From assembly GCA_964611475.1 (NCBI GenBank), contig CAZTAB010000317.1, positions 1 to 39,446 on the forward strand: a stretch of DNA of 39,446 bases, read 5' to 3'. The DNA comes from an uncultured Verrucomicrobiota bacterium (GTDB lineage Bacteria > Verrucomicrobiota > Kiritimatiellia > SLOV01). The notes under the pieces are model-generated. The model worked only from the letters and a program-made list of their open reading frames with translations. It ran no database searches and had not been told where the DNA came from. Every line of letters begins with the position of its first letter. The stretch's first letter is position 1. Position numbers and translations under genes: made by a program. Below are positions 7,704 through 38,729 of this stretch, piece after piece.

Positions 7704-8660
7704 TCAAGGCGTCTCCGGCGGCGCCGAGCGCCGCAATCCGCGGACCATCAACCCCATGTCATCGGCAGCCTTCTCCACCCTGGGATTGGCCTCCGCCTTC
7801 CGTCGCTCCTCGGTATTCCCGACATCCATAACACAAAAATCGTAGGCGGCACGATACCTCTGAATGAACACAGGGCGCGGACGGCTGGAGCGGTTGGCCA
7901 GCGATCCGTGAACGGTCAACCCGCTGAAAAGAATGGCGTCCCCCGCCTTGCCCGGAACTAATACCGCGCGATCGAACCAGGAATCATCCAGGCAAAACCC
8001 GGCGAATGCATCGTCAATGTGCTCGACCGGGCCGAGTTTGTGCGATCCTGGAACGACCTGAAGGGCCCCATTGGCTTCGTCGGTGTCAATGGCGTACGTC
8101 AACACGCCCACCGTGGTGTTGTACTTGTGCTGGAAGTAGTACTCGTCCTGATGCATGCTCTTGGGAACACCCGATTCGGGATGCTTGTAGATGCACTGCC
8201 CCCACTTCCACAGCTCGAGATCGGGCCCGATCAAGGCCTCGACCACGTCGAGCAGTCGCGGGTTCATCAGCGACACGGTGAATGCGCCACTCACGAGCCC
8301 ATTGAACCGCAGCGAATTCACGACTTTCTCTCCCGGACGATCCGGATCTTCGTTGAACATGGTTCCATCGGGCGTGACCCAGGCATTCCTGTGGATCGCG
8401 TGGGGCCTCGCTTCCGGAAGAAGAGACTGGGCCTCCTCCAGTACCCGCTCCATGTCTTTGAGGATTCGCCCCACATATTCCCGGGCAACGCCACGCAGCA
8501 CAAGCGCCCCACACTCTTCGTATATGGCCTTCGCCTTCCGAAAGTCTACATCTTCATTCGGCCACTCGAGATCTTCCACTGCAATATCGGAGAACCTCAT
8601 ATTTTCTGCCTCGCCATTCTTGTCCCGCACACAATTCGCGTTCGTTCTAGGTATTGCCAA
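7704..8660 (-). CDS. PhyH-family Fe(II)/2-oxoglutarate dioxygenase (paralogue 1)
   Basis: HxD in SMHQDEYYFQ, NGALQVVPGSHKLG, distal His in GDAILFSGLTVHGSLAN, then RPVFIQRYR. Internal ATG at 8600 (MRFSDIAVED) is a likely alternative start. Confidence 0.85.
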   Translation of the reverse strand: MAIPRTNANCVRDKNGEAENMRFSDIAVEDLEWPNEDVDFRKAKAIYEECGALVLRGVAREYVGRILKDMERVLEEAQSLLPEARPHAIHRNAWVTPDGTMFNEDPDRPGEKVVNSLRFNGLVSGAFTVSLMNPRLLDVVEALIGPDLELWKWGQCIYKHPESGVPKSMHQDEYYFQHKYNTTVGVLTYAIDTDEANGALQVVPGSHKLGPVEHIDDAFAGFCLDDSWFDRAVLVPGKAGDAILFSGLTVHGSLANRSSRPRPVFIQRYRAAYDFCVMDVGNTEERRKAEANPRVEKAADDMGLMVRGLRRSAPPETP

Positions 8661-9191
8661 TGTCTTCTATCCGCGGCCAGACGCCGCAGGAAAGGATATT
8701 TTTCCGTGTCCATCTCTTGAACAATCAAACCACAAGCACTAGCGTTCTCAAAATAGAGAGATCCGCTACATGCCTGCAAGTAGTCTAGTTTGTCAAAAAA
8801 ACCGGAACCGATTCAAGACGAGGACCAGAATCACTTCCATGTCGAGGCAACCCGGCCCGTTCGGCCTTTCACGATCCGGGCCTACGACCATTCCATCCCC
8901 CGGGGTCCACCCCTGGGCCAAAGGCTCTGCCGAAAAAACTTCACGGCACGCTTCCCGGTGAAATGTGGCAGCCTGTCGCCAGTGGTACCGGCCCGCAGCA
9001 GATCGCCAGACCTGTTTGCAGGCAGGGTTTTCGTCTGATTGATCACCCTTTGCCTGGCCAAACGATTCGCGCTAGACCCGCCCCAATGCGGCCATAATTT
9101 ACTTGATCTGCCGCAGCTGAATCCTCGAAGATGAGATCCATATGTAGGGAAACTCCAGTTTTCGGATGACACCGTCTTACGAGGAATAGCA

Positions 9192-9866
9192 ATGCCCATC
9201 CCAAAGAAAGCACAGCCGGCTGCCATCGGCATTAGCATCGCCGTGCTCGCGGCATGTATCACCTTCATCGCCCGCGAATGCAGCGACGGGGGGGTTCAGT
9301 ACACAAAAGAACAGCTTGAGCGTCTCGAATCGAACATCGGGTTCAGCGTACAGGATATCGCCGACCGCCTGGGTGACAAAACCGGCGTACTCCTGCTTTC
9401 CATCCAGGTGGAGGGATCGAAAGGCCTCGACGAATCGAGAGCGGTTGCAAAAATCGTACTGGAACGGGCGGGCAAGCAGGTTGCGGAGGAAAACATCAAC
9501 CCAGTAGCGGAGGGAATGTTTTTCAATCCGATCAACTGGGCGATGTCGTGGGATGATTACAATGATGCGGTTCTGAGGCACCCGGACGTGGAGGCCGTCA
9601 TCTCGATCGCTGGCGCTCCAGGAATCACGGATGAGGACGACGTCGCACTCCCCGACACCTATCCGCCGTTATACGTGGCTTTTTCGCCGGGCCGCCAGCC
9701 CGACCTCGGCCCCCTGTTCGACGAGGGAATCCTGGCAGTCGCGGTCGTCCGCAATCCCATGCCCGGCGGCCACAAGGGGGAAACGCCGCGGGAACAATTC
9801 GACGCGACCTTCGAACTGGTAACGACAGAATCGGAAGAGCTACCAATCTTCCAGGCTATGCCCTGA
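9192..9866 (+). CDS. Hypothetical membrane-anchored protein
   Basis: 224-aa ORF. GAGGAA lies a few nt upstream of ATG 9192. N-terminal hydrophobic anchor AAIGISIAVLAACITFIA. High third-position GC. No family recognised. Confidence 0.55.
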   Translation: MPIPKKAQPAAIGISIAVLAACITFIARECSDGGVQYTKEQLERLESNIGFSVQDIADRLGDKTGVLLLSIQVEGSKGLDESRAVAKIVLERAGKQVAEENINPVAEGMFFNPINWAMSWDDYNDAVLRHPDVEAVISIAGAPGITDEDDVALPDTYPPLYVAFSPGRQPDLGPLFDEGILAVAVVRNPMPGGHKGETPREQFDATFELVTTESEELPIFQAMP

Positions 9867-9921
9867 CCCGGGATCAGGGCATCTGCGCAGCGCCCCGGAT
9901 CCATTCACCCCCGTTGCAGCG

Positions 9922-11205
9922 TCAGCTTTTTTCTTTGAGAAACTCCGCCTCCTCCGCGCCGCGAAGGGTGTCCATGTTGTCGAATACTTTTGTGAAGGCG
10001 TCCACTGCCTGCTGCATTTCAGCGAGGCCGTTGGGCGCGGAAAGCATCGCCTGGACCAGGCTGAACTCCTCGTTGTGGATTCGCTCTTGGACCGGCACCT
10101 GCACCTTTGAGTAGTCTGGGCGGGTGCCATCCTCGTAATAGAAAGGGTGTCCCTTGCCGTAATAGTCCAAATCGCGGAACACACTCCGGCGGTGCATGAC
10201 ATCGGAAACAACGTTTTCACCGCCCTCCATAAAATACATGTTGGCATGTGAAATATATGCGATCGCCGAGACCCCCTCGGCACGCAAAGCGCGCAGGAAA
10301 AGGTCACGAGAAATCCCTGCCTCCTTTTCGTCGAAGAGTCCCGTCCAGTAGTGGTACACGTGGCGCACTCCAGGCTCGACCCACGGCGGCGTGATGCCGG
10401 GGAACCCGGACAGCTCCTCGGAAAGAAACTCCGCGTTCCGGATCCGCCAGTCGGACCGCGCTTCCGCGCTCTCGAGATCCCGCATTACGTACGGGGTCAG
10501 ACCGATCGGAAAACGGTGGTTGTCGCCGCGACCGCTGAAGTCAAGCTGCCGGCGCAGCTCCGGCTCGGTGATCTTTGGCAGGATGGAAACGCTGTGCTGT
10601 CCGGCAAGGAGCGCCTTCTGGTACAAGGCCCGGTCGTTGGTGGTGAAGAAACCGCCGCCGCCCCAACCGTGGCTGAACGGCTTCCCCGAGCAACTGAAAG
10701 CAGTGATATGCCCGATCCCGCCGAGGGAAACACCGTTGATCGCCGCGCCCCCGGACTGGCAGGCATCCTCCACCACGTAGAGTCCGTGACGTGAAGCAAT
10801 GTCCATGACCTCATAGACCGCAGATGCATTTCCATAAAGATCGACGGGCATGATGGCCTTTGTGCGGGGCGTAATCGCGGCCTCGATCTTGGATGGGGCG
10901 ATCATGTAGGTCCGCGGATCGATATCCACGAAAACCGGAATTGCATTTACCCGCAAAATAGCTGCGATGGATGCGACCCAGGTGTGCCCGACCGTGATCA
11001 CTTCGTCGTGGTTTCCCACGCCGCACGCCGCCAGCGACGCGATCAATGCCGACGTGCCGTTGGATACAGGGTACGAATACTTGGCTCCCGTCAGGGCGCA
11101 GAGCGCTTCCTCTAGATCCTGAAACTTCCACGGGTTCCCACCGTAGGGGCCGATCTGTTTCGGCCGAAGAACGGGGTCACCTCCGAGTATTGCGAGCTTA
11201 GACAT
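9922..11205 (-). CDS. DegT/DnrJ/EryC1/StrS-family PLP-dependent sugar aminotransferase
   Basis: Motifs LAILGGDPV, VSNGTSALIASLAACGVG..DEVI, AIPVFVDID, TKAIMPVDLYGN, YVVEDACQSGGA, and FSCSGKPFS (candidate PLP lysine) followed by GGGGFFTT. Confidence 0.9.
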   Translation of the reverse strand: MSKLAILGGDPVLRPKQIGPYGGNPWKFQDLEEALCALTGAKYSYPVSNGTSALIASLAACGVGNHDEVITVGHTWVASIAAILRVNAIPVFVDIDPRTYMIAPSKIEAAITPRTKAIMPVDLYGNASAVYEVMDIASRHGLYVVEDACQSGGAAINGVSLGGIGHITAFSCSGKPFSHGWGGGGFFTTNDRALYQKALLAGQHSVSILPKITEPELRRQLDFSGRGDNHRFPIGLTPYVMRDLESAEARSDWRIRNAEFLSEELSGFPGITPPWVEPGVRHVYHYWTGLFDEKEAGISRDLFLRALRAEGVSAIAYISHANMYFMEGGENVVSDVMHRRSVFRDLDYYGKGHPFYYEDGTRPDYSKVQVPVQERIHNEEFSLVQAMLSAPNGLAEMQQAVDAFTKVFDNMDTLRGAEEAEFLKEKS

Positions 11206-11499: not shown

Positions 11500-12588
11500 A
11501 TGCCCGGGACGAATCAACTCGCAGAATTGCGCGTATCCAACGACATCCTCGGAGACCCGTCGGAATTACGCAGGCGGTTCGACGAGGAGGGATACGTCTT
11601 CATCAAGGGAGTCTTCGACCGGAACGACATGCTGAACCTGCGCCGGGAGATGATGACCACCATCCAACAGGGCGGTTGGCTGGCTGCGGAGACGGATCCA
11701 CTGGAGGGGATCGCCGAATTGTCCGCCCGGTGCACCGAGGGCGACCCCGGTTACACCGATGTCTATTTTGAGGTGTACAAGGTGGAGGACTTCCACCGCA
11801 TTGCGCACAGCCCGGGGGTCATGGAAATTGTCGAAAAACTGATCGGCCGGGCGGCCATTCCCATTCCGCAGAAAATCGCGCGAATCTGGTTTCCGCAGTT
11901 CACAATGCACACCACGCCGATTCACCAGGACTTCGTGCATTTCCAGGGGAATTTCGAAACCTATACAGCGTGGTCGCCCGTGGGCGATTGCCCGATCGAG
12001 CTGGGCGGCCTGGCCCTCCTTCCCGGTTCCCACAAAATCGGCAGGGTCCTGGAACACCACTTTTCACTCGGCGCGGGCAGCCTGAGCCTCGACACCGAGG
12101 CAGAGGCCTCCGTGCATGAAGAAATCAACGTGCCCTGGCACACCACGAACTACGAGGCGGGCGACACCCTCTTTTTCTCTGCCCTGACCGTCCACAAGGC
12201 ACTGGAAAACAAAACGGAGGATCGCCTGCGGCTGTCACTGGATAACCGGTATACCGCCGTCGGCGACACGATCTGCGACTACATGCTTGAACCCCACCTT
12301 GTCACCGATACCGAGTTGCTTGGCTGGGAACAGGTATACGAACGCTGGAAACACGACGACCTCAAGTACTACTGGCGGGACATCGATCACAAGGTCGGCG
12401 ACCGCGACATGAGTTACATCGACAAGGGATTTGCGGAAGCCCTGGAGCTGGGCCGGCAGGGCGACGAACGGGCCCTTATCCGTCTTCGCCGCACCATCAC
12501 ACGATACCCCGGCAGCTCGAAGGCTCAAGCTGCCTGCACGGTGATAAAAGAACTTGGACCGCCAAACCCCGGTCAGACGCCCGATTGA
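11500..12588 (+). CDS. PhyH-family Fe(II)/2-oxoglutarate dioxygenase (paralogue 2, long C-terminal extension)
   Basis: ATG 11500 (MPGTNQLAEL); the upstream part of the track ORF looks non-coding. Motifs GYVFIKGVF, HxD in PIHQDFVHFQG, LALLPGSHKIG, distal His in GDTLFFSALTVHKALEN, RLSLDNRY. Confidence 0.85.
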   Translation: MPGTNQLAELRVSNDILGDPSELRRRFDEEGYVFIKGVFDRNDMLNLRREMMTTIQQGGWLAAETDPLEGIAELSARCTEGDPGYTDVYFEVYKVEDFHRIAHSPGVMEIVEKLIGRAAIPIPQKIARIWFPQFTMHTTPIHQDFVHFQGNFETYTAWSPVGDCPIELGGLALLPGSHKIGRVLEHHFSLGAGSLSLDTEAEASVHEEINVPWHTTNYEAGDTLFFSALTVHKALENKTEDRLRLSLDNRYTAVGDTICDYMLEPHLVTDTELLGWEQVYERWKHDDLKYYWRDIDHKVGDRDMSYIDKGFAEALELGRQGDERALIRLRRTITRYPGSSKAQAACTVIKELGPPNPGQTPD

Positions 12589-13299: not shown

Positions 13300-15216
13300 C
13301 TAAAGGTCCTCACCCTCGGACAATCCGTAGTACTCTCTCAACGCCTTGATGGCCACTGTGGTGTACGCCCCCTCCATGTACACATCAATGCCGTGCGCCT
13401 CACAAAGGTCAAACATCCGGCGAACCAAAGGGCGCAGGCCATTTTTCTCATCGGGCTTGAGAGGAACCAGCTCATTTTCCAGGGTGGTGTCCTTGATAAT
13501 CACCACGCGCCGCGGCGCCTCGATCGCGTTCCAGAACACCGGCTCGATAGCCAGCCGCAAGGCGGTAACCGAGATCTTTTCAACGCGATTCCGGATCTCG
13601 TTGTTCTCCGCCAGTTCCATTGCCTCCTCGAACAGCTCCAAGCCCCTTTCACCCAGTTTTGCGTCCAGCCCGCAGCTCTTCGGAGTGAAATTGATGTTCG
13701 TATGTTTCCCGGACGCCAGGGCCTGATCGTGCACCAGGTCGATCCAGCGCCGGATTGGATCCGACGCCTCGCCGTAGTACAGGCCCAAGAACTCATCGAT
13801 CAGGGTATCGGCGTCGAGGGATGGGTTCCAGATCAACGAGGAAGTCACATACGCCCGAAGATCGCTGAACTCCGTGTTCCGCGCCGGCCCCTGCAGAAAA
13901 ATCGCCTGCCCCCGGTTGCGCTCGAAACTTTTCATCTGGGGACCGATCGCACGCAGGTTCGGCGCAGGAAACAGGTAGTCCCTCGGATTCAGGTCATAGT
14001 GCCAGAAAAGCAGATTCTCGCAGAGCTTCCCCCACCCGTGCAGATACGGGACGGCCTTCCTGTTCACGGGACAGTCGGGATCCTCGAACGCATGCATAAC
14101 GCAGGCATGATACATCGCCATCTGCACTCTCACGTTCGGCAGGGCCCGCATCTTCCGGGGGGGCATCATGGACCAAGAGTAGGCCTCAGTGCCCACGAAG
14201 AGATCAGGACGTTCCTTCCCAACCTGCTCCGCAACGTGATTCACGAAGTCAATGATCACCGCGGAGGGGGGGCCGTTTGAAGGAATGAAGCCCATACCAA
14301 GCGGATTCTGAGCCGGCACGGGGATGTCTTCCGGCGCATCTCCCTCGCGCTGAATCTTAGCGCATCGACGGCACTCACATGCCCCTGGCGCATCGTTTTG
14401 CGCCAACGTGATCGAGTCGCCCTCCGAGTAGTTCGAAAGCTCGCCCAGGACGCGCTCAACGACCGCTTCCCGCACATAGGGATGCGACAGACATGGCTGC
14501 AGTCCTTGCCGCTTCCCCTCGTACAGGCAGTAGTGCTCGGGATTCACATCGAAGCTGCCGTGAAACTGGAAATTGTTGTGAAGGTACACGCCGCCAATCA
14601 CCTCGCCGCCGAGGTGCTCCGTCAGGCGGTGCTCCTCCGACGCGCCCCTGCCCGCCGCATTTTGCCTTCGCCGGACAGCAAAGTCCGGATGAAGCATAAG
14701 TTCCTGCTTCAGGTAAAGCCGGAAGGAAAACGGCGGCTGATAGGACCGGTCCACAGGAGCGATGTCCAGCGGAGAATCCATTTTAGGCACATGCGTCACG
14801 TCGGCAGTCAAAAACCGCACACCCAGATAGTCCTCCAAAAACGTGTACACCCCGTAGAGCGTCCCGCGCGGCCGTCCACCGGCGATCGCAATGTTGCCAC
14901 CCCGAACAACGATTCGAAGTTCCTCATCCCCCATGCCTTGGGTCCCAAATCCCGCCGAGCTCTTGAGCATGGCTTCGCCCGGGCCAATAAAAACATGGCG
15001 ATCTGGTCGATCCACAGCGCTCACGATCGGCAGCCGCAGGCCGGTTGCCTCGGCAAGGAACTCCTGGAATTCCTCCGCAGCATACCGCTCGCTGGGGATC
15101 GCATTTTCGGATACAACAATGTCCCACTCATCCGTGGAGGACACGTCCATCTTCATTGTGGAACAACCAAACGCCCCGATCAAAATAATCCCCGTCACCC
15201 ATCGAGCTACATTCAT
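13300..15216 (-). CDS. DUF4838-like secreted/lipoprotein, glycoside-hydrolase-like (paralogue A)
   Basis: ATG 15216 preceded by AGGAGA. Signal/lipobox-like N-terminus MNVARWVTGIILIGAFGC. Motifs IVVSENAIPSERYAAEEFQEFL, IAGGRPRGTLYGVYTFLEDYLGVRFLT, CECRRC. Clear paralogue of 23415-25274. Confidence 0.85.
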   Translation of the reverse strand: MNVARWVTGIILIGAFGCSTMKMDVSSTDEWDIVVSENAIPSERYAAEEFQEFLAEATGLRLPIVSAVDRPDRHVFIGPGEAMLKSSAGFGTQGMGDEELRIVVRGGNIAIAGGRPRGTLYGVYTFLEDYLGVRFLTADVTHVPKMDSPLDIAPVDRSYQPPFSFRLYLKQELMLHPDFAVRRRQNAAGRGASEEHRLTEHLGGEVIGGVYLHNNFQFHGSFDVNPEHYCLYEGKRQGLQPCLSHPYVREAVVERVLGELSNYSEGDSITLAQNDAPGACECRRCAKIQREGDAPEDIPVPAQNPLGMGFIPSNGPPSAVIIDFVNHVAEQVGKERPDLFVGTEAYSWSMMPPRKMRALPNVRVQMAMYHACVMHAFEDPDCPVNRKAVPYLHGWGKLCENLLFWHYDLNPRDYLFPAPNLRAIGPQMKSFERNRGQAIFLQGPARNTEFSDLRAYVTSSLIWNPSLDADTLIDEFLGLYYGEASDPIRRWIDLVHDQALASGKHTNINFTPKSCGLDAKLGERGLELFEEAMELAENNEIRNRVEKISVTALRLAIEPVFWNAIEAPRRVVIIKDTTLENELVPLKPDEKNGLRPLVRRMFDLCEAHGIDVYMEGAYTTVAIKALREYYGLSEGEDL

Positions 15217-15312: not shown

Positions 15313-15682
15313 TCGAATTATCTACCAAGACACCTTGCCTTCCTTCACAAGACGAAGCGTCTCCACCGAAGCAGTGCACGGATGTTGGGTACCGGCGGAC
15401 AATACGATTCCCAAGAGCATTCGTTGCGATCGCTTTCTCGATCCCGCTGTCTCTGATTGCACCCGTTGCGCGGTCCCAATGGCAGTCCTTCGCAGATCCA
15501 ATCCCCGGCAACCAATCTGCAGCAGGACAAGTATAAAAAACCCGCATCCATACCCGCCGTTCTGCGACGACGATGAATACAAAAGGGGGACGGCGGAAAC
15601 ATGCGTAATCTTCCACTTCTCAAGCGAACGGCGACATCGACCGATTGCCATCCAACCAGCTGTTTGCTATGTTTTTGATAGC

Positions 15683-16618
15683 ATGAACGTCATCTTCACC
15701 TATTGTGTCGAGGCACTCGACGAGTGTGTCCCCAAGATGCACACGATCTGGAATGCACACCGGAGATGGGACGCCCCGCTGACGATCTTCGTGGTTGGAC
15801 GCATCGTGAAGCGCGAGGGCGAAGCACTGAAAGACCTAATCTCCGATCGGCCGGAGCTGTGGGACGTCAACAGTCACGGCTACTCCCACACCCGCGTCGT
15901 ACGCAAGATCCCGTGGTCACGCCCGCAACCGTCCCCCCAACTGATCGAGCACGAGTACGTTCGCGGCGCCGAGGTGATCCGCCGGGTCCTGGACCGGCCC
16001 TGCCGCGGCATGAGTTCCGCGGGTGGCGTCAGCGCTGGGTTCCGGGGCTATCCGGAAAATCTCGCCGCGCTTCGAAAGGCGGGCTGCACCTGGTCTGCCA
16101 GCAATGCCCGGTCAACCTTCGGGGAAACCAACCCCACGGACTGCTGCGGCCCCTACACCTACGAGGATGACGGCTACCCGGACCTGCTGGAAATGCCAAT
16201 GCATGGCTGGCCGGACTGCACATTGAAGGGGTCGTCCGGCCCGCGCCTGGGGGAAAAGGAGCAGCGACACACCCAGTACGTAATCAAATGGCCATCGCCG
16301 TGGTTCACGCCCCAGCAGTTCGTGGAGACACCTGAGGAGGAATTCGAGGCGCACCGGAATACCATTGACGTCACGGAGGAGGTCGGACTGCCTTTCTGCA
16401 CGATCATCTTTCACCCATGGTGCACGGTGCGAAAACAAGATCCTGAAGCGAAGGTCGTCGACCTCCTGCTTCAATACATCGACGAAAAAGGCCACCGGGC
16501 AACCACGCTTGATGCCGAAGCCGCGCGATGCAGGGAGAATCCAGCGCTTCTTGTCCCTGCGCCCCCCATTCCTGACTCGAGACGGGCAGATTTCGATGCG
16601 GGAACGGTGATCGCATGA
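15683..16618 (+). CDS. Polysaccharide deacetylase-like protein (NodB/CE4-type), tandem copy 1
   Basis: ATG 15683 (MNVIFTYCVE). Motifs APLTIFVVG, WDVNSHGYSH (HxxxH metal motif), GLPFCTIIFHPW. About half the residues match copy 2 by eye. The stop overlaps the ATG of copy 2. Confidence 0.8.
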   Translation: MNVIFTYCVEALDECVPKMHTIWNAHRRWDAPLTIFVVGRIVKREGEALKDLISDRPELWDVNSHGYSHTRVVRKIPWSRPQPSPQLIEHEYVRGAEVIRRVLDRPCRGMSSAGGVSAGFRGYPENLAALRKAGCTWSASNARSTFGETNPTDCCGPYTYEDDGYPDLLEMPMHGWPDCTLKGSSGPRLGEKEQRHTQYVIKWPSPWFTPQQFVETPEEEFEAHRNTIDVTEEVGLPFCTIIFHPWCTVRKQDPEAKVVDLLLQYIDEKGHRATTLDAEAARCRENPALLVPAPPIPDSRRADFDAGTVIA

Positions 16619-26085: not shown

Positions 26086-26088
26086 CCC

Positions 26089-28416: not shown

Positions 28417-28688
28417 CACAGCCTGATTGGTTCCGATCTCCATCCTGCCCGCGAGTCCTGCCGTACACTGCACGCCGAGCCGAAAGCCGGATCTTCTCCC
28501 CTGTCGTAAGCCCCGCCACACGCTTTGTCGATACCGGGATCAACAATATGCGCGACGACCGCGCAGCTCCAGGGCCTTCGTCAAGGGCCCAAGGAGTTGA
28601 CCGGAAGGATCTAATTCAGGTAGTTTCCCGCCTGGCATCGGGGACCATGGACTGCCATGCCAAACACTCAAACCCAGGAGACATAACG

Positions 28689-29087: not shown

Positions 29088-30611
29088 CTACACCTGGCCG
29101 AATTGAAACGCATAGATGCGCGCGTTTTGAAATTGAACATGTAACTGGATGGGCTTGCCTGCGACCTCCGGGGCAATGTGTTCCCGCCCGCCCCACACGA
29201 CCGGCGCGTGGATTGCATCTTCGGCCAGGGGCAGGCAGTCGTCGAAGGTGTATCCCGGGACCGGCTTGCCGTCCTCGACGGAAACCAGTTGTGCCCGCAG
29301 CAGAACATCGGCGCCAAGTGGTTCTAGGTTCAGGAGCAGCCGCCCGCCCCCAATCAGCAGCGGTCTGGTAATGAATTGCCCTCCACCGGGATCCGCCTCA
29401 ATCCCGACAATCCGGTCACGCTTGAACGTGACCCGCCCGACCCGACTCACGGGCGTGTACGGCAGCTCGATCGGCCGGGAACCGGAGTGCGGACCGTCTC
29501 CCGATCGGTAGTACAGCGCAAGGGTGTCCTTGTCGATCTCCACAAATCCGGGGGCCACGGATACAATGAAGCAGTCGAACGCGCCTTCCGGCCCCAGGGG
29601 GATGAACGTTTCGCGCGTGGCCCGGAACCAGTTGCGGTTGTCCCGGCTGGTGCAAACCTGCACTTCGAATGTGCCCTCGTAGTGTCGGTAAAAAGACGGG
29701 AACATGAAATGCAGGCGGGGTGAATTCGGATACCGGGAATAGGCGCTGTTGTAGATGTCGGTGTTCAACCCGTCGAGGGAATCGGCCTGCAAAGCAACGC
29801 CGGTGCTCCGCCAGTTCCGGTAATCAGACGATTCCAGCCGCCCCACCGCCCGACCCCGGCCCGTTGAAGGAACCCGGTAGTCTCCGGCTTCAACCCCTCC
29901 GTACTGTGCAGAGGTACGATGATAGGCCACGTACCGTTCCAGCGTCCCATCCCAACTCACCGTATTTTGCGAGTCACAGTACCGGCCAAGAAAATTGTCA
30001 TAGTACCTCGTCCACTGGAGCCCGTCCGGCGACGCCGCGCCGCGCAGGAAACCAACGTTGTGGGTGAACGGGAGCTCGAATGCCTCCGGACCGCCCCAAT
30101 CCGTGTAGATCATCTTGTAGCGTTCACCCTCCAGGGCGTGGGGATCGACAAACACCATCCCCAATTCCGGGCTGACCCCATTCATACCGCCATCGAACAC
30201 CACGTTATTGTCGGTCGACCCTGAGGGATCGACCTGCCCGGGATTCCGGCGTACGAATTCCAGACCGTCCTTCGACTCGGCATAACTGACGTACATCCCC
30301 CTCCTGGCCTTCCGGCTGGAGTTGTACCACATCCTGTAGATCCCCCCCTCGCGCAACACACAAAGCCAGGCGCTCGATTTCTCCCTTGGCGCCTGCCCCT
30401 CGAACAGGGCCCCCGGATGCTTCTCCACCCGCCCCACGCTCCACCGTATCCCGCGCGGATACTGCTCTGCGTTCCGCCCGAGCGAAAGAAGAAAGTCATC
30501 GACCAGCAGCTGACGCTCCGTCCCGACATCGACCGGATGGTCGCACCACGGACCCACATGCGTGTTAACCGCGAGGTTAAAGTTTTTCATATCGTGTCCG
30601 ATGACAGCCAT
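29088..30611 (-). CDS. Asp-box beta-propeller + beta-sandwich glycosidase-like protein (distant paralogue III)
   Basis: 507 aa, ATG 30611, no signal peptide. N-terminus ERQLLVDDFLL. Motifs SKDGLEFVRR...STDNNVVF and SPDGLQWTR. The C-terminal tail AGKPIQLHVQFQNARIYAFQF matches the tails of 21783-23384 and 30920-32479. Confidence 0.8.
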   Translation of the reverse strand: MAVIGHDMKNFNLAVNTHVGPWCDHPVDVGTERQLLVDDFLLSLGRNAEQYPRGIRWSVGRVEKHPGALFEGQAPREKSSAWLCVLREGGIYRMWYNSSRKARRGMYVSYAESKDGLEFVRRNPGQVDPSGSTDNNVVFDGGMNGVSPELGMVFVDPHALEGERYKMIYTDWGGPEAFELPFTHNVGFLRGAASPDGLQWTRYYDNFLGRYCDSQNTVSWDGTLERYVAYHRTSAQYGGVEAGDYRVPSTGRGRAVGRLESSDYRNWRSTGVALQADSLDGLNTDIYNSAYSRYPNSPRLHFMFPSFYRHYEGTFEVQVCTSRDNRNWFRATRETFIPLGPEGAFDCFIVSVAPGFVEIDKDTLALYYRSGDGPHSGSRPIELPYTPVSRVGRVTFKRDRIVGIEADPGGGQFITRPLLIGGGRLLLNLEPLGADVLLRAQLVSVEDGKPVPGYTFDDCLPLAEDAIHAPVVWGGREHIAPEVAGKPIQLHVQFQNARIYAFQFGQV

Positions 30612-30919: not shown

Positions 30920-32479
30920 TCAGACGAATTGAAACGCGTACAACTTCGCGTTTCGCATCCGAACGTGCATCCGCACAGGCTTGCCGGCGAGGGAGGAAAC
31001 ATCCTCGTTGCCGTTCCAGCTCACCACGCGAGCGATGGAGTTGCACACGACCTGGTCACACTCCCCGATGGAAAAGTCCGAGACACGGGGCATCCAGGCG
31101 GCGGCGTCCGATTCCACTCTCTCGAGGCCAATCTCGACCAGACCTCGCGCACCGGTATCCGCATTCAACTCGAGACGGCTCCCTGAAAAAACAATGGGAG
31201 GCGTGACAAACTGTCCGCCAGCGTTTCCGGCATCGGCAGACAAATATCCGTCCAGCCGGAGCCGGGCGCGGTGAATAGACCCAACGTATGGCGGGCTCGG
31301 GGCCTTCTCATACACACCGGGCTTGCCGTGGTGATGCCAGCTGTCCATCCGGATGTAGTAGTGGTCAATCCAGTGACCGGTGCGGAGAACCCCGGGTCCG
31401 CAGTAGAGAATACCAGCATGCTCATCGATGGGGGGTCGAATCCAGGCCTGCCGGTCGCCCGGTCGTTCCCAGCGAATGCCGTCACGACTCACCGCGAGCT
31501 GAATTTCCTCCAGGTTCGGACGATGCGCCAGGACAGAAAACGGCATGATGAACACTCGATCCGCCCACGGATACTGCGTGACTGGCTGATTGTAGATGTC
31601 CGTGCCACTCAGATCCTCCAGCTTGTCTGTTCCCCAGATGAATTCTTCCTCCGAGGCATTCGGGTCAAACCGTTTCATCGCCGGCGATCTATCGAACGCC
31701 ACGCCTGGCATGAAACCCGGCCCATGCACCGAGCCATCACGCTCGTCCAATTCGTCGGGCTCCAGGACCACGTTCTTGGGCTCAAGGAACGGCCAGGACC
31801 AGAAATCGTCGGTCTCCACGCGACAGACGCATCGCGTAGGAGCCCAAAGCCGAAAATACCCGACCCACCGGCCCAGATGCTTGTCCCAGAGAACCACGTT
31901 CTGGGAATCAGACACCGCCTTGCTGACGGGTTCCCCGTTATTGCCGACGGTCCAGCTGAATCCGTCGGCCGAATAGGCCCCGAAAATTCCGTGAGGCATG
32001 CCCATGTAAATCGTCTTGTAACGGCGCTCGGGCGTGTCGTTCTCGTCGATCAGCACGCGACCCGGTTCATGAAAACCATGCGGCGGCCCGTTCGAATCGG
32101 CCTGCATGACAATGTTGTTCTCAGTGCTGCCATCAAATTCGCAGACACCAAGGTTCGGCTTCTCCCATTGGACACCGTCTTCCGAAGTGGCGCAGCAGAG
32201 CCGAAAACAGGAATTGCCCTTCCCCTTCGGATCGTCCGGAAGCGTTTCAATCGTGAGGTAGTACAGCTTGACATGCCCCGCGACCGGATCGGGCAACAGG
32301 TCGCAAAAGCTGACAATTCCTCCGTTCTCCCACGGGCGGTCGGCGTGGAGAACCTCTCCGGCATCGACCGGCGGGTTCAGGGTCAGCGTAATGCCCTGTT
32401 GATGGGCAAAAAAAAGATCGTCTACAAACAGCTGTTTCCGGCTGGCAACATGAATGGGGAACTGGCTCTCCGGATCCAT
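30920..32479 (-). CDS. Asp-box beta-propeller + beta-sandwich glycosidase-like protein (paralogue II)
   Basis: Likely start is ATG 32479 (MDPESQF), with GGAGGAG 6 nt upstream; the track ORF runs to 32668. Motifs RKQLFVDDLFF, SEDGVQWEKPNLGVCEFDGSTENNIVM, SADGFSWTV, SRDGIRWERP. Tail AGKPVRMHVRMRNAKLYAFQFV. Confidence 0.82.
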   Translation of the reverse strand: MDPESQFPIHVASRKQLFVDDLFFAHQQGITLTLNPPVDAGEVLHADRPWENGGIVSFCDLLPDPVAGHVKLYYLTIETLPDDPKGKGNSCFRLCCATSEDGVQWEKPNLGVCEFDGSTENNIVMQADSNGPPHGFHEPGRVLIDENDTPERRYKTIYMGMPHGIFGAYSADGFSWTVGNNGEPVSKAVSDSQNVVLWDKHLGRWVGYFRLWAPTRCVCRVETDDFWSWPFLEPKNVVLEPDELDERDGSVHGPGFMPGVAFDRSPAMKRFDPNASEEEFIWGTDKLEDLSGTDIYNQPVTQYPWADRVFIMPFSVLAHRPNLEEIQLAVSRDGIRWERPGDRQAWIRPPIDEHAGILYCGPGVLRTGHWIDHYYIRMDSWHHHGKPGVYEKAPSPPYVGSIHRARLRLDGYLSADAGNAGGQFVTPPIVFSGSRLELNADTGARGLVEIGLERVESDAAAWMPRVSDFSIGECDQVVCNSIARVVSWNGNEDVSSLAGKPVRMHVRMRNAKLYAFQFV

Positions 32480-32562
32480 CTTCATCTCCTCCGTTTTCTC
32501 ATGGTGTCTCGCCGAAAATATACCGAGTCGAAGACCAGAACAAAGATTATTTTCGTGCGGCC

Positions 32563-33069
32563 CTAATCCAAATCTAGACGATATGTCTTCTCGGAGGAAT
32601 AGCCGTCTGGATCGAAGAGGATCTTCATTCCGCCATCGCCCATGACACGTCCGCCGGTGTCGGTCCAAGGGCCGCCGCCGGCTCCGTTGTCCGAGCGTTC
32701 AAGTCGATACAGGACGCCCTGCTGCGTGGCAATGTTGAATCCGTGCGTCTCGATGATGCGCGTGCTCTTGATCGAGAACTCGGGCGGCGCCGTAACGACG
32801 TTGAAGGGAGTCGCTCCGCCCCCTTGGTCCGTATCGAAGTCAAACACGGACTCGTCCATCGCGTTCCCGGCAAACAGACCGTCGCGGCTGAAGGAGTAGA
32901 CTCCGGTGCTCGCCCTGTGAACCGGATTCCCATTGCTGGCGAAAGGCTGGTTCACGCCTGACAAATCCTCCCACTGCATCGCCGGGCGTCCAGGGACAAA
33001 AGGAGGCCCGATTTCCCGCGCAGCGCAAAAAAACCCGCCCACAAAACGACCGAAACCACAGCCAGGCAA
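32563..33069 (-). CDS. Hypothetical protein, possibly secreted; 5' end uncertain (possible frameshift at an A7 tract)
   Basis: 168-aa ORF from TTG 33069. C-terminal pattern GVLYRLERSDNG...KTYRLDLD. A signal-peptide-like ORF in another frame (ATG 33104 or 33125) meets this frame at A7, positions 33027-33033. Confidence 0.5.
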   Translation of the reverse strand: MPGCGFGRFVGGFFCAAREIGPPFVPGRPAMQWEDLSGVNQPFASNGNPVHRASTGVYSFSRDGLFAGNAMDESVFDFDTDQGGGATPFNVVTAPPEFSIKSTRIIETHGFNIATQQGVLYRLERSDNGAGGGPWTDTGGRVMGDGGMKILFDPDGYSSEKTYRLDLD

Positions 33070-33224
33070 TAACGGGGATGATAGCCCCCGTGTTGCCGCT
33101 TCATGAAGCTTTGAGAGTTAGCCATCTTAAACGCCTTGCCCATAACACACAGAACCTTAAAAATAATACCCAGCAAAGACATTATTCTCCCGAGGGAAAC
33201 AACCGTCTGACCGTTCTCAAACCG

Positions 33225-33614
33225 ATCGAAAATTACACCGCCATTTGTTATGGCTTTCAAAAGAAAACAGGGATACATCCCGCGCCGAAACCGGTCCTTT
33301 TTATCGACACTGCAAGCGACTATCGAAGCCGGTTTCCCAAAGGCGGTGAAATCGCGCTGGTCGACCCCAAGACGACCGACGTTCATGCCGTGGCCGATAT
33401 GCTGCGGACATTCAATCGGCAGCCTGGCCCGGCTACATGTCGACATTCATGAGCTGACCGTCGAGGCAGCGCTGAAGGGCAACCGCGATCTACTCCTCCA
33501 GGCCCTCAGCCCCGATCACTCAGCGCGGGCGCGAGTTTCACCGAGATAGGGAACCAGGCCGAAGAATTGCTGCTAGCGAACCGGGAATGGCTAACCAGGT
33601 TAATTCAAAACTGA
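33225..33614 (+). pseudogene. 3' remnant of a GH4-family (NAD/Mn-dependent) glycosidase gene, frameshifted
   Basis: Three frames together spell the conserved GH4 C-terminal half. Frame a gives IENYTAICYG...FPKGGEIALVDPK...AVADMLRTFNRQ. Frame b gives HVDIHELTVEAALKGNRDLLLQALSPD. Frame c (hand-translated) gives LSAGASFTEIGNQAEELLLANREWLTRLIQN, ending at stop 33612-33614. Colinear with the remembered E. coli MelA tail. There is no N-terminal Rossmann part. The 5' boundary is uncertain. Confidence 0.55.
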
Positions 33615-33802
33615 TTCCACCCTGAATCTGCCTGCTCCCTGGCCCGCCCTGGTGGCGTTCTTATTTCGAGTTCGACCCCGTCTCCCCCGACTTCAACGAA
33701 GTCCATGCGTGATTCCACTTGATAAGTCCGGTGTTGCGCCTCCCAGGGACATGACCGCGCGTCACGAGCGGCCGACAGCTTTTGTGTTGTTTGGCAGGGG
33801 CC

Positions 33803-34777
33803 TCATGGCTGGAATCGCCTCACGTGCAGGGAGGAAGATTCGATGTCGTCCAAAAAACGATTCAGGATGGAAGAAATCCCGTCCTCCGAGAAGTAGAGTT
33901 TCCCCACGGCCGACACGCCCTCCCCGGGTTCCAGGGATGGGTATACAGGCTCACTATGCAGGCAGGGAATGCTGGAGCGGGCCATCAACTGGTTCGCATC
34001 GGGCCAGGCAAGGCCGATCGAGCGCAATCCATCCCGGCTCTGCACACAAATCAATCCGTGGTCTACAGCTTCCCGGACGGGCCAACAGTGGTCATGCAGC
34101 TCCTGCTCTTCCAGCGGATTCCCCACCCCGACCCGGACCCACGACAGCCTCTGCATCTCCTCCGGCGTAGGCGTTAATTTCCTGACATTTCGCGCCGTCC
34201 CGCCAGCCCACACAAAGGTGCGCTCATGTCGGCGATCAATAAAATGCGGAGCATTCCAGATCATGAAACAACTGTCGGTCGACGGCCGAATCGCAGCGTC
34301 GGTCCCGTTCACGATACGGTATGAGAACTTGATGTCGACGTCACCTGCTGTCACACCCGCGAAAAGCTCGAGTCCGTCGTAGAAACGGATCTTATAGCCT
34401 GTTTCGGCCTCATCCTCCGCAAGACTCCATTCCGGAGCCGCCTCCGGCGGCACCCCTGCCCAGCACAGCGCCCCGCGCGGCTGCCAGATATAGCGCTGAT
34501 CGTTCACGACAAAGGTCTCCGGCATGCGGTAGAGAAAAAAGCCCCCCGGGTGCCACGGATCATCAATCTGTGCAGCGATACTCCACCGCGAGACGGGATG
34601 CTCATAGTGCCCTCTGACCTTCAAACGGTTCACATCCCACCCTCCGTCATTTCCGACCCTTTCACGCTGAAGAATACCTCGGTCATTGCGATCGATCCCA
34701 TCACTAATTACCCATATCCACCAGCTCCTAATCTTCTTTATGGTTATACACTTTTGATACAAAGCCTTTTTCGTCAA
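33803..34777 (-). CDS. Hypothetical protein
   Basis: 324-aa ORF with balanced composition over most of its length. Its first ~25 codons lie in the low-GC islet, so the true start is uncertain. No family recognised. Confidence 0.6.
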   Translation of the reverse strand: MTKKALYQKCITIKKIRSWWIWVISDGIDRNDRGILQRERVGNDGGWDVNRLKVRGHYEHPVSRWSIAAQIDDPWHPGGFFLYRMPETFVVNDQRYIWQPRGALCWAGVPPEAAPEWSLAEDEAETGYKIRFYDGLELFAGVTAGDVDIKFSYRIVNGTDAAIRPSTDSCFMIWNAPHFIDRRHERTFVWAGGTARNVRKLTPTPEEMQRLSWVRVGVGNPLEEQELHDHCWPVREAVDHGLICVQSRDGLRSIGLAWPDANQLMARSSIPCLHSEPVYPSLEPGEGVSAVGKLYFSEDGISSILNRFLDDIESSSLHVRRFQP

Positions 34778-34985
34778 TTTCAGCCATGCGTCTTCTTAGA
34801 AGTGCTTTACTACCGACAAAGAATGAGGCAAGAGGTTTCACGCCTTGTGTGACTCTTTCAAAATTTTGAGTGTTTTTAGGAATTTCTACACCAGATTCAT
34901 CACGCCAGTGCCAAGCATTGCAATAATTTAGGTTTATATCATTTAACATAACATCCTCACCTTCAATTTTACCGGTCGGGGCCAC
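34700..34985. other. Low-GC islet (~38% GC) inside GC-rich DNA
   Basis: Hand count over 34741-34980 gives 92 G+C in 240 nt. The flanks are visibly much more GC-rich. Confidence 0.7.
34728..34949 (-). CDS. Small hypothetical protein encoded in a low-GC islet
   Basis: ATG 34949 (MLNDINLNYCNAWHWRDESG...) is preceded by AGGTGAGGA ~5 nt upstream. 73 aa. Overlaps the 5' end of the 33803-34777 ORF in another frame. No family recognised. Confidence 0.4.
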   Translation of the reverse strand: MLNDINLNYCNAWHWRDESGVEIPKNTQNFERVTQGVKPLASFFVGSKALLRRRMAEIDEKGFVSKVYNHKED

Positions 34986-35058
34986 GGAAATTGGTCCCGA
35001 CCACCAGAGTCAAAGAAAGACCGGCACAGCCCTTGATAGGGCCGACACGCCTCAAGAG

Positions 35059-36536: not shown

Positions 36537-36813
36537 TGTGGCGCCCCAAGCACCAGGCACGAGGAACCAAGAGCTCATTCCCCTTGTGGTCCCCCCGGTT
36601 TTCGTAGAATCTCTGCCTGCCGCAAACGCCGCTGATTGGAAAATGCCGTGTTGGACGGAAGCCCCTTGGCGACCGGCCCGGAGGAGGCACTTTATGAGCT
36701 TCGCGCCGCACAGGCCATCTACAGGTCGGTCCAATCGAGGCAATGGTAAAAAGTGTAGTCTGTGAAAATCCAGGCTCCATGAAAAACGGGCACACCACAT
36801 TCTGAATCGCGAC

Positions 36814-37725
36814 TTGCACTGCCAGAAGACAAACGACGGGCGCATCGAGATAGACGCCGGGTCGCTTCGCGCCGCGATCCGGACCCGGGGATACGTGTCG
36901 GGCATTGCTGGGAACTCCTTTCTGGACAAGAAAACAGGGGTCGTCGATCCGGGGTTCGGACTCCTGATTATGGATTTCCTCCTGGCCCCCGGCTGGCGGA
37001 AAGACGGGTACGAACGGGAGAAAGCCCTGCACGGGGACCTGGCAAAGCACTTGGTCGAGGGACCCCAGATCTGCACCGGCGCAAGGCAGCTTGAACATGA
37101 AATCATATCCGGCCCCGAGCATCTGGCTGTCCGCCAGTGGTTCACCTACAACGAGCCGGGGAACGGCTACCGTGGCGGATCGCGCTGGGTACAGACGCTC
37201 CTTTTCCTCCCCGGAGTGCGGTACATCTTGGCATGCGAGGCGATTGAGAACGTGAATGACCTGGATTGCATGAGCTACCGGATGGATATTCCAGGGCACA
37301 TAAAGCACGACGCCGGCAACACGTTCCACAGGATCTATCTTTCCTTCCACGGCATGATTGACGCGGTCGATTTTCTTCGGGATTTCCCCCCCGATGGCCG
37401 TTTTCACTACCTCCGCGACGACGGAGCCGTGCCGGAGCGCTTCATACGCGCCATACAACTGCGCGAACCGGGCGGCCAGCCCGGCCCCTGGCTTGCCGGC
37501 ATGACCCTTGATCCCGCAACACCCTCCGAGGCGTGGTGCCACCAGCGCGGATACGTCTGCATGATCCAGGAGAATCATGGCCGGCCGGTGACAAAAGGGG
37601 AAACCATCGGGGCCGCGTACGTCCTTGGGTACTTCGATTCGATCGGCGAAATGGAGGATATATATGACCGATTTCGTGGCGCGAGCCAGCTGCGTGTTGA
37701 CGAAGAAGGCTACCGATTGAACTAG
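36814..37725 (+). CDS. Hypothetical protein (start uncertain)
   Basis: 303-aa ORF with strong GC3 bias on the + strand. The only start in the open stretch is TTG 36814, with no SD. An in-frame TGA at 36763 separates it from an SD+ATG at 36694. Confidence 0.65.
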   Translation: MHCQKTNDGRIEIDAGSLRAAIRTRGYVSGIAGNSFLDKKTGVVDPGFGLLIMDFLLAPGWRKDGYEREKALHGDLAKHLVEGPQICTGARQLEHEIISGPEHLAVRQWFTYNEPGNGYRGGSRWVQTLLFLPGVRYILACEAIENVNDLDCMSYRMDIPGHIKHDAGNTFHRIYLSFHGMIDAVDFLRDFPPDGRFHYLRDDGAVPERFIRAIQLREPGGQPGPWLAGMTLDPATPSEAWCHQRGYVCMIQENHGRPVTKGETIGAAYVLGYFDSIGEMEDIYDRFRGASQLRVDEEGYRLN

Positions 37726-37934
37726 GGGCACGTCGACAAAACGGGCGACACGCGCTCAGGACGGGCCCTCCCGGCCAGGCAACGCCCAGGTTTTGCTGCT
37801 CTTCGGGCATGAGCGGTCATTCTCCCACCAGCGTCGCATCCGGGGCGGATTGAGAAACGACTTCCGGAAAACGCCGTTGCCCCGGTGGGTGCCAGGAGGT
37901 AGCGTAATCGAGGATTCGATCGGCGGCGGCGGGA

Positions 37935-38729
37935 ATGGTAAAGATGGTCAAGGCATTTCAAGCCATTGTAAGAGACGGGAAAGCCCTTTCGGACACTCAC
38001 CTTGAGGCATTCAACAGGGATGGGTATATCATCCTCAAGGGTCTCCTGTGCCCGAAGGAAATCGAAAGGATCAAGAGCTGCCGCGACCGGGCAGAGGCGC
38101 GTGCAGGGGAGGAGGGCGGTTCCTTTATGGAAGGCGTGGCCCACTTCGACCTCGAACCGCTGGGTGGCGATGAATCCTCCGGGGAATTCGCCCTGCGCAA
38201 GGTGCAGGAGGCCTATCAGGTTGACGAAGACTTTCGCCATGTCACAGCCAGTGACAAGATTCTCGATGTGGTAGAGGACCTGATCGGCCCGGACATCTAC
38301 TACTTCTCCAGCAAACTCATGTGCAAGCCCGCCCAAGGCGGGCGCAGGAAACCCTGGCATCAGGACTACGCCTACTGGGAGGGAATGAACACCAAACAGG
38401 TCACCGTTTGGTCCGCGATTGACCACGCCACCACCGAAAACGGCTGCATGCAACTCATCCCCGGCAGCCACAGGCGTGGCCTCATCCCCCACCACCAGCT
38501 CGAGGACTACATGATCGACGAAGCCGGCATTGAAAATGAAAACATCCTCACAGCGGAAATGGATGCCGGCGACGTTCTTTTTTTCAACGTTTTGACCCTA
38601 CATGCTTCAGGGCCGAACCACTCCCACGCCCCCCGCCTCTCGGCCATCATCGATTTCGACTCCAAGCCCAAGCCGAGGAAGGAACTCCCGTTTGGAAGTG
38701 AAACGCCGCTTCGCTCAACCAGCGCATAA
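37935..38729 (+). CDS. PhyH-family Fe(II)/2-oxoglutarate dioxygenase (paralogue 6)
   Basis: Motifs FNRDGYIILKGLL, HxD in PWHQDYAYWEG, NGCMQLIPGSHRRG, distal His in GDVLFFNVLTLHASGPN. Closest in motif wording to paralogue 4. Confidence 0.88.
   Translation: MVKMVKAFQAIVRDGKALSDTHLEAFNRDGYIILKGLLCPKEIERIKSCRDRAEARAGEEGGSFMEGVAHFDLEPLGGDESSGEFALRKVQEAYQVDEDFRHVTASDKILDVVEDLIGPDIYYFSSKLMCKPAQGGRRKPWHQDYAYWEGMNTKQVTVWSAIDHATTENGCMQLIPGSHRRGLIPHHQLEDYMIDEAGIENENILTAEMDAGDVLFFNVLTLHASGPNHSHAPRLSAIIDFDSKPKPRKELPFGSETPLRSTSA

Follow-up and report, generated by a model that had tools for sequence, protein, structure and literature searches.

Six divergent PhyH-family dioxygenase genes in a CAZyme-rich island of an uncultured Verrucomicrobiota bacterium and their possible role in carbohydrate catabolism

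PF05721, the PhyH family of Fe(II)/2-oxoglutarate (2OG) dioxygenases, is the most abundant domain in Poribacteria, where it accounts for more than 1.9% of the genes (305 sequences in 193 clusters), and Kamke et al. 2014 proposed a function for a few PhnY-like members only, in phosphonate use (PMC3909097). Stonkus et al. 2025 showed the demethylation of 2′-O-methyl nucleosides by PHYHD1, bacterial FJS and further PF05721 proteins, one of them poribacterial (PMC12709175). Here we analyse six new members of this known superfamily, which lie interleaved with genes of glycosidase type in a stretch of 39,446 nucleotides from an uncultured Verrucomicrobiota bacterium (the complete NCBI contig CAZTAB010000317.1; the whole stretch is called the window below). 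Like the window, the poribacterial expansion has many divergent PF05721 paralogues in a marine heterotroph well equipped to degrade glycans, and the best relatives of window paralogues 2 and 3 are found in Poribacteria, in clusters of 3-4 PhyH genes. The window differs in its RlmD relatives (Kiritimatiellales, Pontiellaceae and Lentisphaerae) and in a PhyH density higher than that of the comparison loci, and Kamke et al. 2014, unlike the present analysis, drew no link between PhyH and carbohydrate genes (PMC3909097). PHYHD1 and FJS share with the six the Pfam family and the HxD...H triad and strip an O-methyl group from a ribose hydroxyl, which is the type of chemistry proposed here; they differ in that their substrates are free nucleosides and not glycan-derived sugars, in that no glycosidase context has been described for them, and in an identity of only 21-34% to the six. 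SnoK/SnoN, EvdO1/EvdO2/AviO1 and KanJ also belong to PF05721 and act on sugar or oligosaccharide moieties, but they are biosynthetic, come from actinomycete gene clusters and are 18-23% identical. Reisky et al. 2018 reportedly described a cytochrome P450 that demethylates 6-O-methyl-D-galactose in porphyran utilisation loci of marine Bacteroidota. This enzyme would be a functional analogue, an oxygenase of a polysaccharide utilisation locus that is said to strip an O-methyl decoration so that sugar catabolism can proceed, but it belongs to an unrelated haem family with redox partners and lies in a canonical SusC/D locus. The complex N-glycan locus of Bacteroides thetaiotaomicron, like the window, holds a DUF4838-type hexosaminidase (GH163, BT1035) together with a GH130 enzyme, which we take to be BT1033. 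Both the GH163 endo-beta-GlcNAcase and the GH185 6-sulfo-GlcNAcase have DUF4838 as their catalytic domain (PMC10570127). No PhyH genes are known from the B. thetaiotaomicron locus, and the window has no SusC/D genes; by analogy, the pairing of DUF4838 with GH130 suggests that the glycan targeted by the window contains N-acetylhexosamine (HexNAc) and beta-mannose. In the literature on PhyH together with polysaccharide utilisation, carbohydrate-active enzymes (CAZymes), sulfatases or fucoidan we found no paper proposing a role in glycan catabolism. A reading of the DNA made from the sequence only had called such a role undescribed, which stands to that extent, but the expansion in a glycan-degrading phylum was known in 2014 (PMC3909097) and sugar O-demethylation in 2025 (PMC12709175), and both lower the novelty of the six.

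The six PhyH genes, which the sequence-only reading had placed at the same positions, are as follows, with their PF05721 scores and motifs.

PhyH paralogue 1, 7704-8660, minus strand: 97 bits, 2.1e-27; HQDEYY and TVHGS; likely start at the ATG at 8600, 298 aa
PhyH paralogue 2, 11500-12588, plus strand (the open reading frame reaches back to 11380): 55.5 bits, 1.3e-14; HQDFVH and TVHKA; C-terminal extension of ~100 aa; divergent from the DegT gene
PhyH paralogue 3, 19713-20546, minus strand: 97 bits, 1.9e-27; HQDCVY and TFHSS
PhyH paralogue 4, 25393-26085, plus strand (open reading frame from 25384): 94 bits, 2.3e-26; HHDWAY and TVHAS
PhyH paralogue 5, 26400-27290, minus strand: 122 bits, 4.6e-35; HQDEYF and LLHRS
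PhyH paralogue 6, 37935-38729, plus strand: 132 bits, 6.4e-38; HQDYAY and TLHAS; starts 209 bp downstream of an open reading frame (ORF) of 303 aa

All six ORFs match PF05721 at 55-132 bits (E 1.3e-14 to 6.4e-38) against a gathering score of 22 bits, and a custom PhyH hidden Markov model (HMM) built from 90 family members and run over all ORFs of the window found exactly six and no seventh. The translations contain every HxD and distal-His motif quoted in the sequence-only reading. When the six are aligned, the columns without variation are H150, D152, P184-G185-S186-H187, H231 and R242, of which H150, D152, H231 and R242 correspond to the facial triad and the 2OG-binding Arg. The invariant Arg sits 11 residues past the distal His in all six, the same spacing as that of the 2OG-binding Arg of human PhyH (PAHX H175, D177, H264, R275). 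With triad, Arg and PGSH invariant, all six look catalytically competent, as had been suggested. No signal peptides are visible in the six translations. Pairwise identity among them is 19-35%, and therefore they represent six separate ancient subfamilies and not recent duplicates. An AlphaFold model, made for paralogue 3 only, has the PhyH-type double-stranded beta-helix fold at a predicted local distance difference test score (pLDDT) of 92.8; its top Foldseek matches are SnoN, PhyH, PtlH, H11 and AviO1 (E ~1e-14 to 1e-12), none of them a close structural neighbour (template modelling score, TM, ~0.55-0.6; 18-23% identity). The cluster itself is real and non-random: 6 of ~28 genes are PhyH genes, with a binomial P of 1.2e-5 even when the per-gene frequency is set to 1.9%, that of Poribacteria, the most PhyH-rich phylum known (PMC3909097). 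The genes are spread over an island that spans 7.7-38.7 kb, in which they are interleaved with carbohydrate-related and other genes, and three of the six are co-directional with a glycosidase-type gene and lie 83-118 bp downstream of it. These are PhyH3 behind GH130 (83 bp), PhyH5 behind the GH43-like gene (88 bp) and PhyH4, which follows DUF4838b by 118 bp in a same-strand run where DUF4838b itself follows the Asp-box 533-aa gene by 6 bp.

The reading that we prefer, at a probability of about one half, is that the six work in the cytoplasm as oxygenases and, together with the glycosidases, act on decorated sugars that have been imported or on metabolites derived from sugars. We infer the substrate, the chemistry and a co-expression of the PhyH genes along the following lines. 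Secreted DUF4838-type hexosaminidases and propeller proteins would cut a HexNAc- and mannose-containing glycan outside the cell, and the fragments, once imported, would be processed in the cytoplasm by the GH130 enzyme, by the GH43-like and Asp-box enzymes, by the CE4-like deacetylases and by the DegT aminotransferase. On decorated sugars, or small molecules derived from sugars, that are beyond the reach of hydrolases, the PhyH enzymes would oxidise C-H bonds, probably by hydroxylating the carbon next to a heteroatom, after which the substituent may be lost spontaneously. In the O-methyl case this would amount to O-demethylation (O-dealkylation) with release of formaldehyde or another aldehyde; oxidative deamination or the formation of keto-sugars may be alternatives. 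By analogy with the characterised enzymes, O-dealkylation is the most likely of the predicted chemistries, and paralogue 5 is the strongest candidate for O-demethylation because it is PHYHD1-like and because of the operon context of a relative (L096, described below). Oxidative deamination is possible given the CE4 and DegT neighbours, the homology to KanJ being weak. Oxidative desulfation finds no support in homology; the idea of an oxidative sulfatase of the AtsK type was tried by homology and dropped, AtsK being of a different family, though the reaction stays chemically conceivable.

Other genes of the island are given here in order of position.

DegT/DnrJ/EryC1-type PLP sugar aminotransferase, 9922-11205, minus strand: PF01041 1e-64
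DUF4838 protein a (GH163/GH185-type hexosaminidase domain), 13300-15216, minus strand: PF16126 7.2e-56; lipoprotein-like N-terminus
Two tandem CE4-like paralogues (polysaccharide deacetylase fold), 15683-16618 and 16615-17523, plus strand: PF01522 2.6e-4 and 5e-9
Secreted PQQ_2/BamB-like beta-propeller with a C-terminal extension, 17564-19531, minus strand: PF13360 1.2e-27; 181 bp downstream of PhyH3
GH130 (beta-mannoside phosphorylase/hydrolase family), 20630-21613, minus strand: PF04041 7.5e-40; no signal peptide by eye
Asp-box-containing protein of 533 aa, 21783-23384, plus strand: family without Pfam match
DUF4838 protein b, 23391-25274 (likely start 23415), plus strand: PF16126 1.1e-47; signal-peptide-like N-terminus
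GH43-like five-bladed-propeller candidate, 27379-28521, minus strand: PF04616 1.1e-6, weak
Asp-box paralogue of 507 aa, 29088-30611, minus strand: by alignment to the 533-aa protein
Asp-box paralogue of ~520-582 aa, 30920-32668, minus strand: by alignment to the 533-aa protein
Protein of 303 aa, 36814-37725, plus strand: upstream of PhyH6; no Pfam or PDB match

The statement of the sequence-only reading that the neighbours are carbohydrate enzymes and not CoA or lipid genes agrees with these Pfam matches (GH130, DUF4838, CE4-like and DegT). Its individual labels held for GH130, DUF4838, DegT and one CE4-like protein, while the GH43-like protein and the other CE4-like protein fall below the family cut-offs and the Asp-box proteins have no Pfam match. 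DUF4838a has weak extra matches to the N-terminal domains GH20b and GH67N. The three Asp-box paralogues are 30-51% identical to each other, and the family has a weak NCBIfam match to GH130 beta-1,2-mannobiose phosphorylase (7.8e-5). A profile of the 533-aa protein compared with the GH130 and GH43-like proteins of the window gave Asp-box-level similarity only (probability 5-6%), its structure model was unusable (three-sequence alignment, pLDDT 33.6), and sequence searches of the PDB gave no match for it or for DUF4838a. It may be noted that the CE4-like ORF 15335-16618 has 116 first codons that look non-coding, the Met at 15683 being the one that aligns with the start of the paralogue at 16615; both CE4-like paralogues lack the canonical TFDD (TYCVE and TYDTE stand instead) and keep H-x-x-x-H. 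Also, a cysteine-rich DUF6370 ORF at 28407-29069 on the plus strand (likely start 28689, with an N-terminus resembling a signal peptide) runs into the opposite-strand GH43-like ORF at the annotated 5′ end of the latter, and the GH43-like protein probably starts at 28443 or 28416. Homologues of the 303-aa protein (200-307 bits) occur in the Poribacteria loci L010-L012 and L017, each ~10 kb from a paralogue-3 relative. Three ORFs of the island are without any match, and a fatty-acid desaturase (2.7e-23) is also encoded there; the six O2-dependent dioxygenases and the desaturase together point to an aerobic lifestyle.

We then compared the contexts of relatives in other genomes, using 80 loci for paralogue 3, of which the 66 longer than 15 kb served for counting PhyH density. 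Paralogue 3 has orthologues at no more than 57% identity in Poribacteria, Caldilineaceae, Latescibacterota, Chthonomonadaceae, Zixibacteria, Paenibacillus and Opitutales. At least two PhyH genes were found in 40 of the 66 loci (mean 2.3 and maximum 5 per 20 kb), and none of them reaches the density of the window, where six stand in 31 kb among genes of glycosidase type. In 17 taxonomically spread loci, the 135 ORFs near the paralogue-3 relatives gave Pfam matches to PhyH (32), MR_MLE (6), GFO_IDH_MocA (5), AP_endonuc_2 (5), ABC permease (4), HpcH (3), sulfatase (3), lactonase (2) and UxuA (2), and ABC sugar-binding proteins and aldo-keto reductases (AKR) are also among them; after PhyH, the neighbours are thus dominated by sugar and sugar-acid catabolism. 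As examples, in L005 three PhyH genes are accompanied by rhaM and by genes for an HpcH aldolase and an ABC transporter, and L006 has an ABC transporter followed by PhyH, a cyclase and PhyH. In Paenibacillus (L008), PfkB, DeoC, Dak1/2, aldolase-SDR and AP_endonuc_2 genes are followed by three PhyH, DUF455, three GFO, an aminotransferase and a fourth PhyH gene. In ~20 Poribacteria loci and in L088 of Moanabacter (Verrucomicrobiota), an orthologue of paralogue 2 (220-240 bits) is separated by 4-7 kb from a paralogue-3-like gene, so that families 2 and 3 co-localise in three lineages, namely the window, Poribacteria and Moanabacter. Four PhyH genes each within 6.5-9 kb are found in L023:5113-11630 (Poribacteria) and L088:6771-15783 (Ca. 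Moanabacter). The former are mixed with a nucleoside phosphorylase, a radical SAM/DUF3641 protein, a metallo-beta-lactamase-fold protein, an iron-containing alcohol dehydrogenase (Fe-ADH), MR_MLE and AKR genes, and the latter with an FG-GAP protein, an SDR and a sulfatase, with DDE transposases on the flanks.

Relatives of paralogue 5 were found in marine metagenomes. Of those at 67-77% identity, one (L091) is followed by a PQQ propeller that is a 1031-bit homologue of that in the window and then by a GH43/32/130-like gene, and another (L089) stands beside FG-GAP/ASPIC and GHL10 proteins. The clearest case is L096 (JGI contig Ga0206921_10072, 481-19891), a single-strand operon of 14 genes in another organism (GC 49%). 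Two PhyH genes stand in tandem at its middle, one of them 52% identical to paralogue 5; the order is a sugar major facilitator superfamily (MFS) transporter (Sugar_tr), ROK/SIS, GH38N-like, PhyH, PhyH, AP_endonuc_2, GH120-like, ROK, (alpha/alpha)6-GH-like, AKR and MR_MLE. Paralogue 6 has orthologues at 55-66% identity in Phycisphaeraceae, Lentisphaerae and metagenome-assembled genomes (MAGs) of Planctomycetota, near which DUF4838, sulfatases, heparinase and other sugar genes are found only loosely. A divergent AraC regulator beside these orthologues (L001, L003/L004 and L108; none in the window) suggests a substrate-inducible gene. Overall, exact adjacency is not conserved, but the association with carbohydrate catabolism and the clustering of several PhyH genes are, and the carbohydrate context recurs in other phyla. 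The sequence-only reading had proposed that the paralogues oxidatively remove or modify glycan substituents; the recurrence of the context speaks for this, while the exact PhyH-glycosidase adjacencies do not hold up in related genomes.

None of the six appears, by its scores, to belong to a characterised subfamily (EctD, PtlH, PhnY-like, halogenases, KanJ or TauD/AtsK), and in the NCBIfam comparison every one of them stayed below all curated cut-offs. The best score to EctD (TIGR02408) was 60 bits for paralogue 6 against a cut-off of 336.5, that to PtlH/1-deoxypentalenic acid hydroxylase (NF045813) 56.7 bits for paralogue 2 against 550, and that to PhnY-like methylphosphonate/phosphonate hydroxylase (NF052437) 71.9 bits for paralogue 6 against 500. 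For the Fe/2OG halogenases (TIGR01762) the best was 73 bits against 226, and their HxA/G motif is present in 0 of the 6 paralogues, all six having HxD. A PhnY/PhnZ pairing of paralogue 1 with the HD protein next to it was also considered and ruled out, as this protein, the only HD protein there, has an HD_4 (SpoT-like) domain and its gene converges with that of paralogue 1. TauD/AtsK (PF02668) was matched by none of the six at E <= 0.01, and the TauD clade, named as related in the sequence-only reading, is a different Pfam family. KanJ (PDB 6s0r / 7cl2), which had been offered as a model, is a remote relative only: it was absent from the six single-sequence searches at thresholds of 1e-3 or 1e-5 and was matched only by the six-sequence profile (1.7e-8). 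The single-sequence PDB searches gave best scores of 41-71 bits across the six, the best matches being SnoN for paralogue 1 (41 bits), PtlH for paralogue 2 (50 bits), ThoJ for paralogue 3 (6ZYK, a natural-product hydroxylase), MysH for paralogue 4 (51 bits), PHYHD1 for paralogue 5 (70 bits) and human PhyH for paralogue 6. The best matches by sequence and by fold include the sugar-acting PF05721 enzymes SnoN, SnoK, EvdO1/2 and AviO1. As far as the subfamily-score and PDB tests reach, the six do not seem to nest inside clades of characterised small-molecule hydroxylases, which agrees with the sequence-only reading. Compared with the 2′-O-methyl nucleoside demethylases, identities are 21-34%, with paralogue 5 at 30-34% to the PHYHD1-like enzymes and paralogue 6 at 34% (73 bits) to the Acidisoma demethylase. 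It may be noted that between the two verified demethylase groups identity is only 22-26% and the scores are 33-47 bits, as compared to 66-73 bits for paralogues 5 and 6 against a verified demethylase. In a crude neighbour-joining tree, at these same identities of 21-34%, paralogue 5 falls in with the PHYHD1-like enzymes, and the FJS-like enzymes are joined by paralogues 4 and 6.

Several results weigh against the proposal that the six are oxygenases of carbohydrate catabolism. A GH130, DUF4838, CE4 or GH43-like neighbour was found in 0 of the 80 paralogue-3 loci, the relatives of paralogue 5 at 67-77% identity have no GH43-like neighbour as in the window, and the neighbourhoods of paralogue 6 are heterogeneous, with the AraC regulator as the only recurrent partner. 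These genomes being rich in CAZymes as well as in PhyH genes, some adjacency is expected by chance. Since identity to any characterised enzyme is at most 34%, the substrate is not transferable by homology, and human PHYH, itself a member of PF05721, has no demethylase activity (PMC12709175). Among the neighbours, the first CE4-like protein is below the PF01522 cut-off (21.4 vs 23.1 bits; the second is above), the GH43-like protein is below that of PF04616 (28.7 vs 32.2 bits), and the Pfam scan of the three Asp-box paralogues gave no family match, so the assignment of these is missing. Pfam scans of all large ORFs of the window gave no transporter, regulator or kinase gene. Neither SusC/SusD or another dedicated transporter nor a regulator, the marks of a canonical polysaccharide utilisation locus, is thus present in the window, and the region is therefore a CAZyme-rich island.

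The explanation that survives best beside the preferred one is coincidental co-location, whereby both gene families are expanded and loosely organised and the six act as hydroxylases on small molecules of unrelated kinds, for example osmolytes, amino acids, phosphonates, lipids or xenobiotics. We regard it as possible, though on the evidence we rather doubt it. The lack of gene-level conservation in the neighbourhoods of relatives fits it well, and so does the PhyH-dense Poribacteria locus L023, in which unrelated genes are mixed (a DNA methyltransferase in addition to the nucleoside phosphorylase, radical SAM and metallo-beta-lactamase-fold genes given above). Also, PF05721 is very diverse in Poribacteria besides being their most abundant domain (PMC3909097), and the characterised relatives are mostly non-sugar enzymes (PtlH, EctD, MysH, the proline hydroxylase H11 and ThoJ). 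What speaks against chance is the count of six in 31 kb, with its low binomial probability even at the poribacterial frequency, the three of six genes that are co-directional and less than 120 bp from a glycosidase-type gene, and the relatives of paralogues 3 and 5 that stand in carbohydrate-catabolic operons of unrelated organisms.

A biosynthetic island, whose product would be a glycosylated natural product or modified surface glycans of the cell itself, would have the PhyH enzymes decorate nucleotide-sugars or glycan intermediates, a case comparable to that of SnoK/SnoN, EvdO or the TIGRFAM sporadic carbohydrate cluster oxygenase. The DegT-type aminotransferases (PF01041) are usually biosynthetic, SnoN, EvdO2 and AviO1 are among the nearest solved relatives, and a DprE1/DprE2-like pair lies on the left flank. 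The matches to the sporadic carbohydrate cluster 2OG-Fe(II) oxygenases (TIGR04324 and TIGR04436) are weak, with 17-25 bits for TIGR04324, far under its cut-off of 150. We consider this explanation improbable, as the Pfam scans of the island gave no glycosyltransferase, nucleotidyltransferase, flippase, polymerase, polyketide synthetase or non-ribosomal peptide synthetase, degradative families are present (GH130, DUF4838 with export signals and GH43-like), and in other genomes the neighbourhoods are those of catabolism (transporters, kinases, aldolases and dehydratases). That one or more paralogues, especially 5 and 6, are instead 2′-O-methyl nucleoside demethylases like PHYHD1/FJS and unrelated to glycans is likewise a slim prospect: the PHYHD1 match of paralogue 5, the Acidisoma match of paralogue 6, the wide spread of the activity in PF05721, a Poribacteria enzyme included (PMC12709175), and the nucleoside phosphorylase gene inside the PhyH cluster of L023 speak for it, but identities reach only 21-34%, genes for a nucleoside transporter, phosphorylase or kinase are absent from the window, and the paralogue-5 relatives stand in sugar/glycosidase operons.

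The left flank of the island (78-7481) is of housekeeping type, comprising a PabB/PabC fusion, a DprE1/DprE2-like FAD and SDR pair, RlmD, Nth and an HD_4 protein, of which three entries are given here.

PabB/PabC fusion, 78-1796: adjoins the DprE1/DprE2-like pair
FAD_binding_4 protein and SDR, 2363-4539, plus strand: 82-nt overlap; similar to the DprE1/DprE2 epimerase pair
HD protein, 6840-7481: HD_4 (SpoT-like) type; convergent with PhyH paralogue 1

The position of the FAD/SDR pair next to PabB/PabC is kept in L106 and L107. The RlmD of the window has its closest relatives, at 76% identity, in these same two loci, which are independently assembled and keep the left-flank synteny of RlmD, SDR, FAD and PabBC; its best named matches (54-55% identity) are from Pontiellaceae, Kiritimatiellales, Lentisphaerae and Chloroherpeton. 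These RlmD matches point to an uncultured lineage of the Planctomycetes-Verrucomicrobia-Chlamydiae (PVC) type and not to Poribacteria. Both contigs (L106:1-366 and L107:1-339) stop ~350 bp past RlmD, where Nth and the PhyH island start in the window, and therefore the island side of the closest relatives is not visible; the ends at the island border may reflect strain-level variability or repeats there. Within the window, a promoter/terminator scan of 19-29 kb gave no excess over shuffled sequence, and Rfam and tRNA scans gave no RNA genes. A 1.1-kb stretch at 32669-33802 has no convincing ORF, and the local GC content dips to ~0.55 at 33000-35000, around an unassigned ORF of 324 aa, as compared to ~0.59 elsewhere.

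PF05721 is expanded also in other marine glycan degraders, and twelve years on almost all of these proteins are without assigned function. The window offers a compact set in this respect, with six divergent enzymes and defined glycosidase neighbours, and L096 a cleaner operon. A wider proposal, which we hold tentatively and think somewhat unlikely, is that PF05721 represents a general and unrecognised class of cytoplasmic glycan-decoration erasers in aerobic polysaccharide catabolism, acting as O-demethylases/dealkylases or by other oxidative removal of substituents, with the six each handling a different decoration of one HexNAc/mannose glycan. If this were true, such a class would account for the multiplication of PhyH genes in Poribacteria, in Verrucomicrobiota and in their marine and sponge-associated relatives, and it would provide new biocatalysts for the selective dealkylation of sugars. 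It would also add an oxygen-dependent step to models of marine polysaccharide turnover and would help to explain how decorated, recalcitrant glycans are mineralised.

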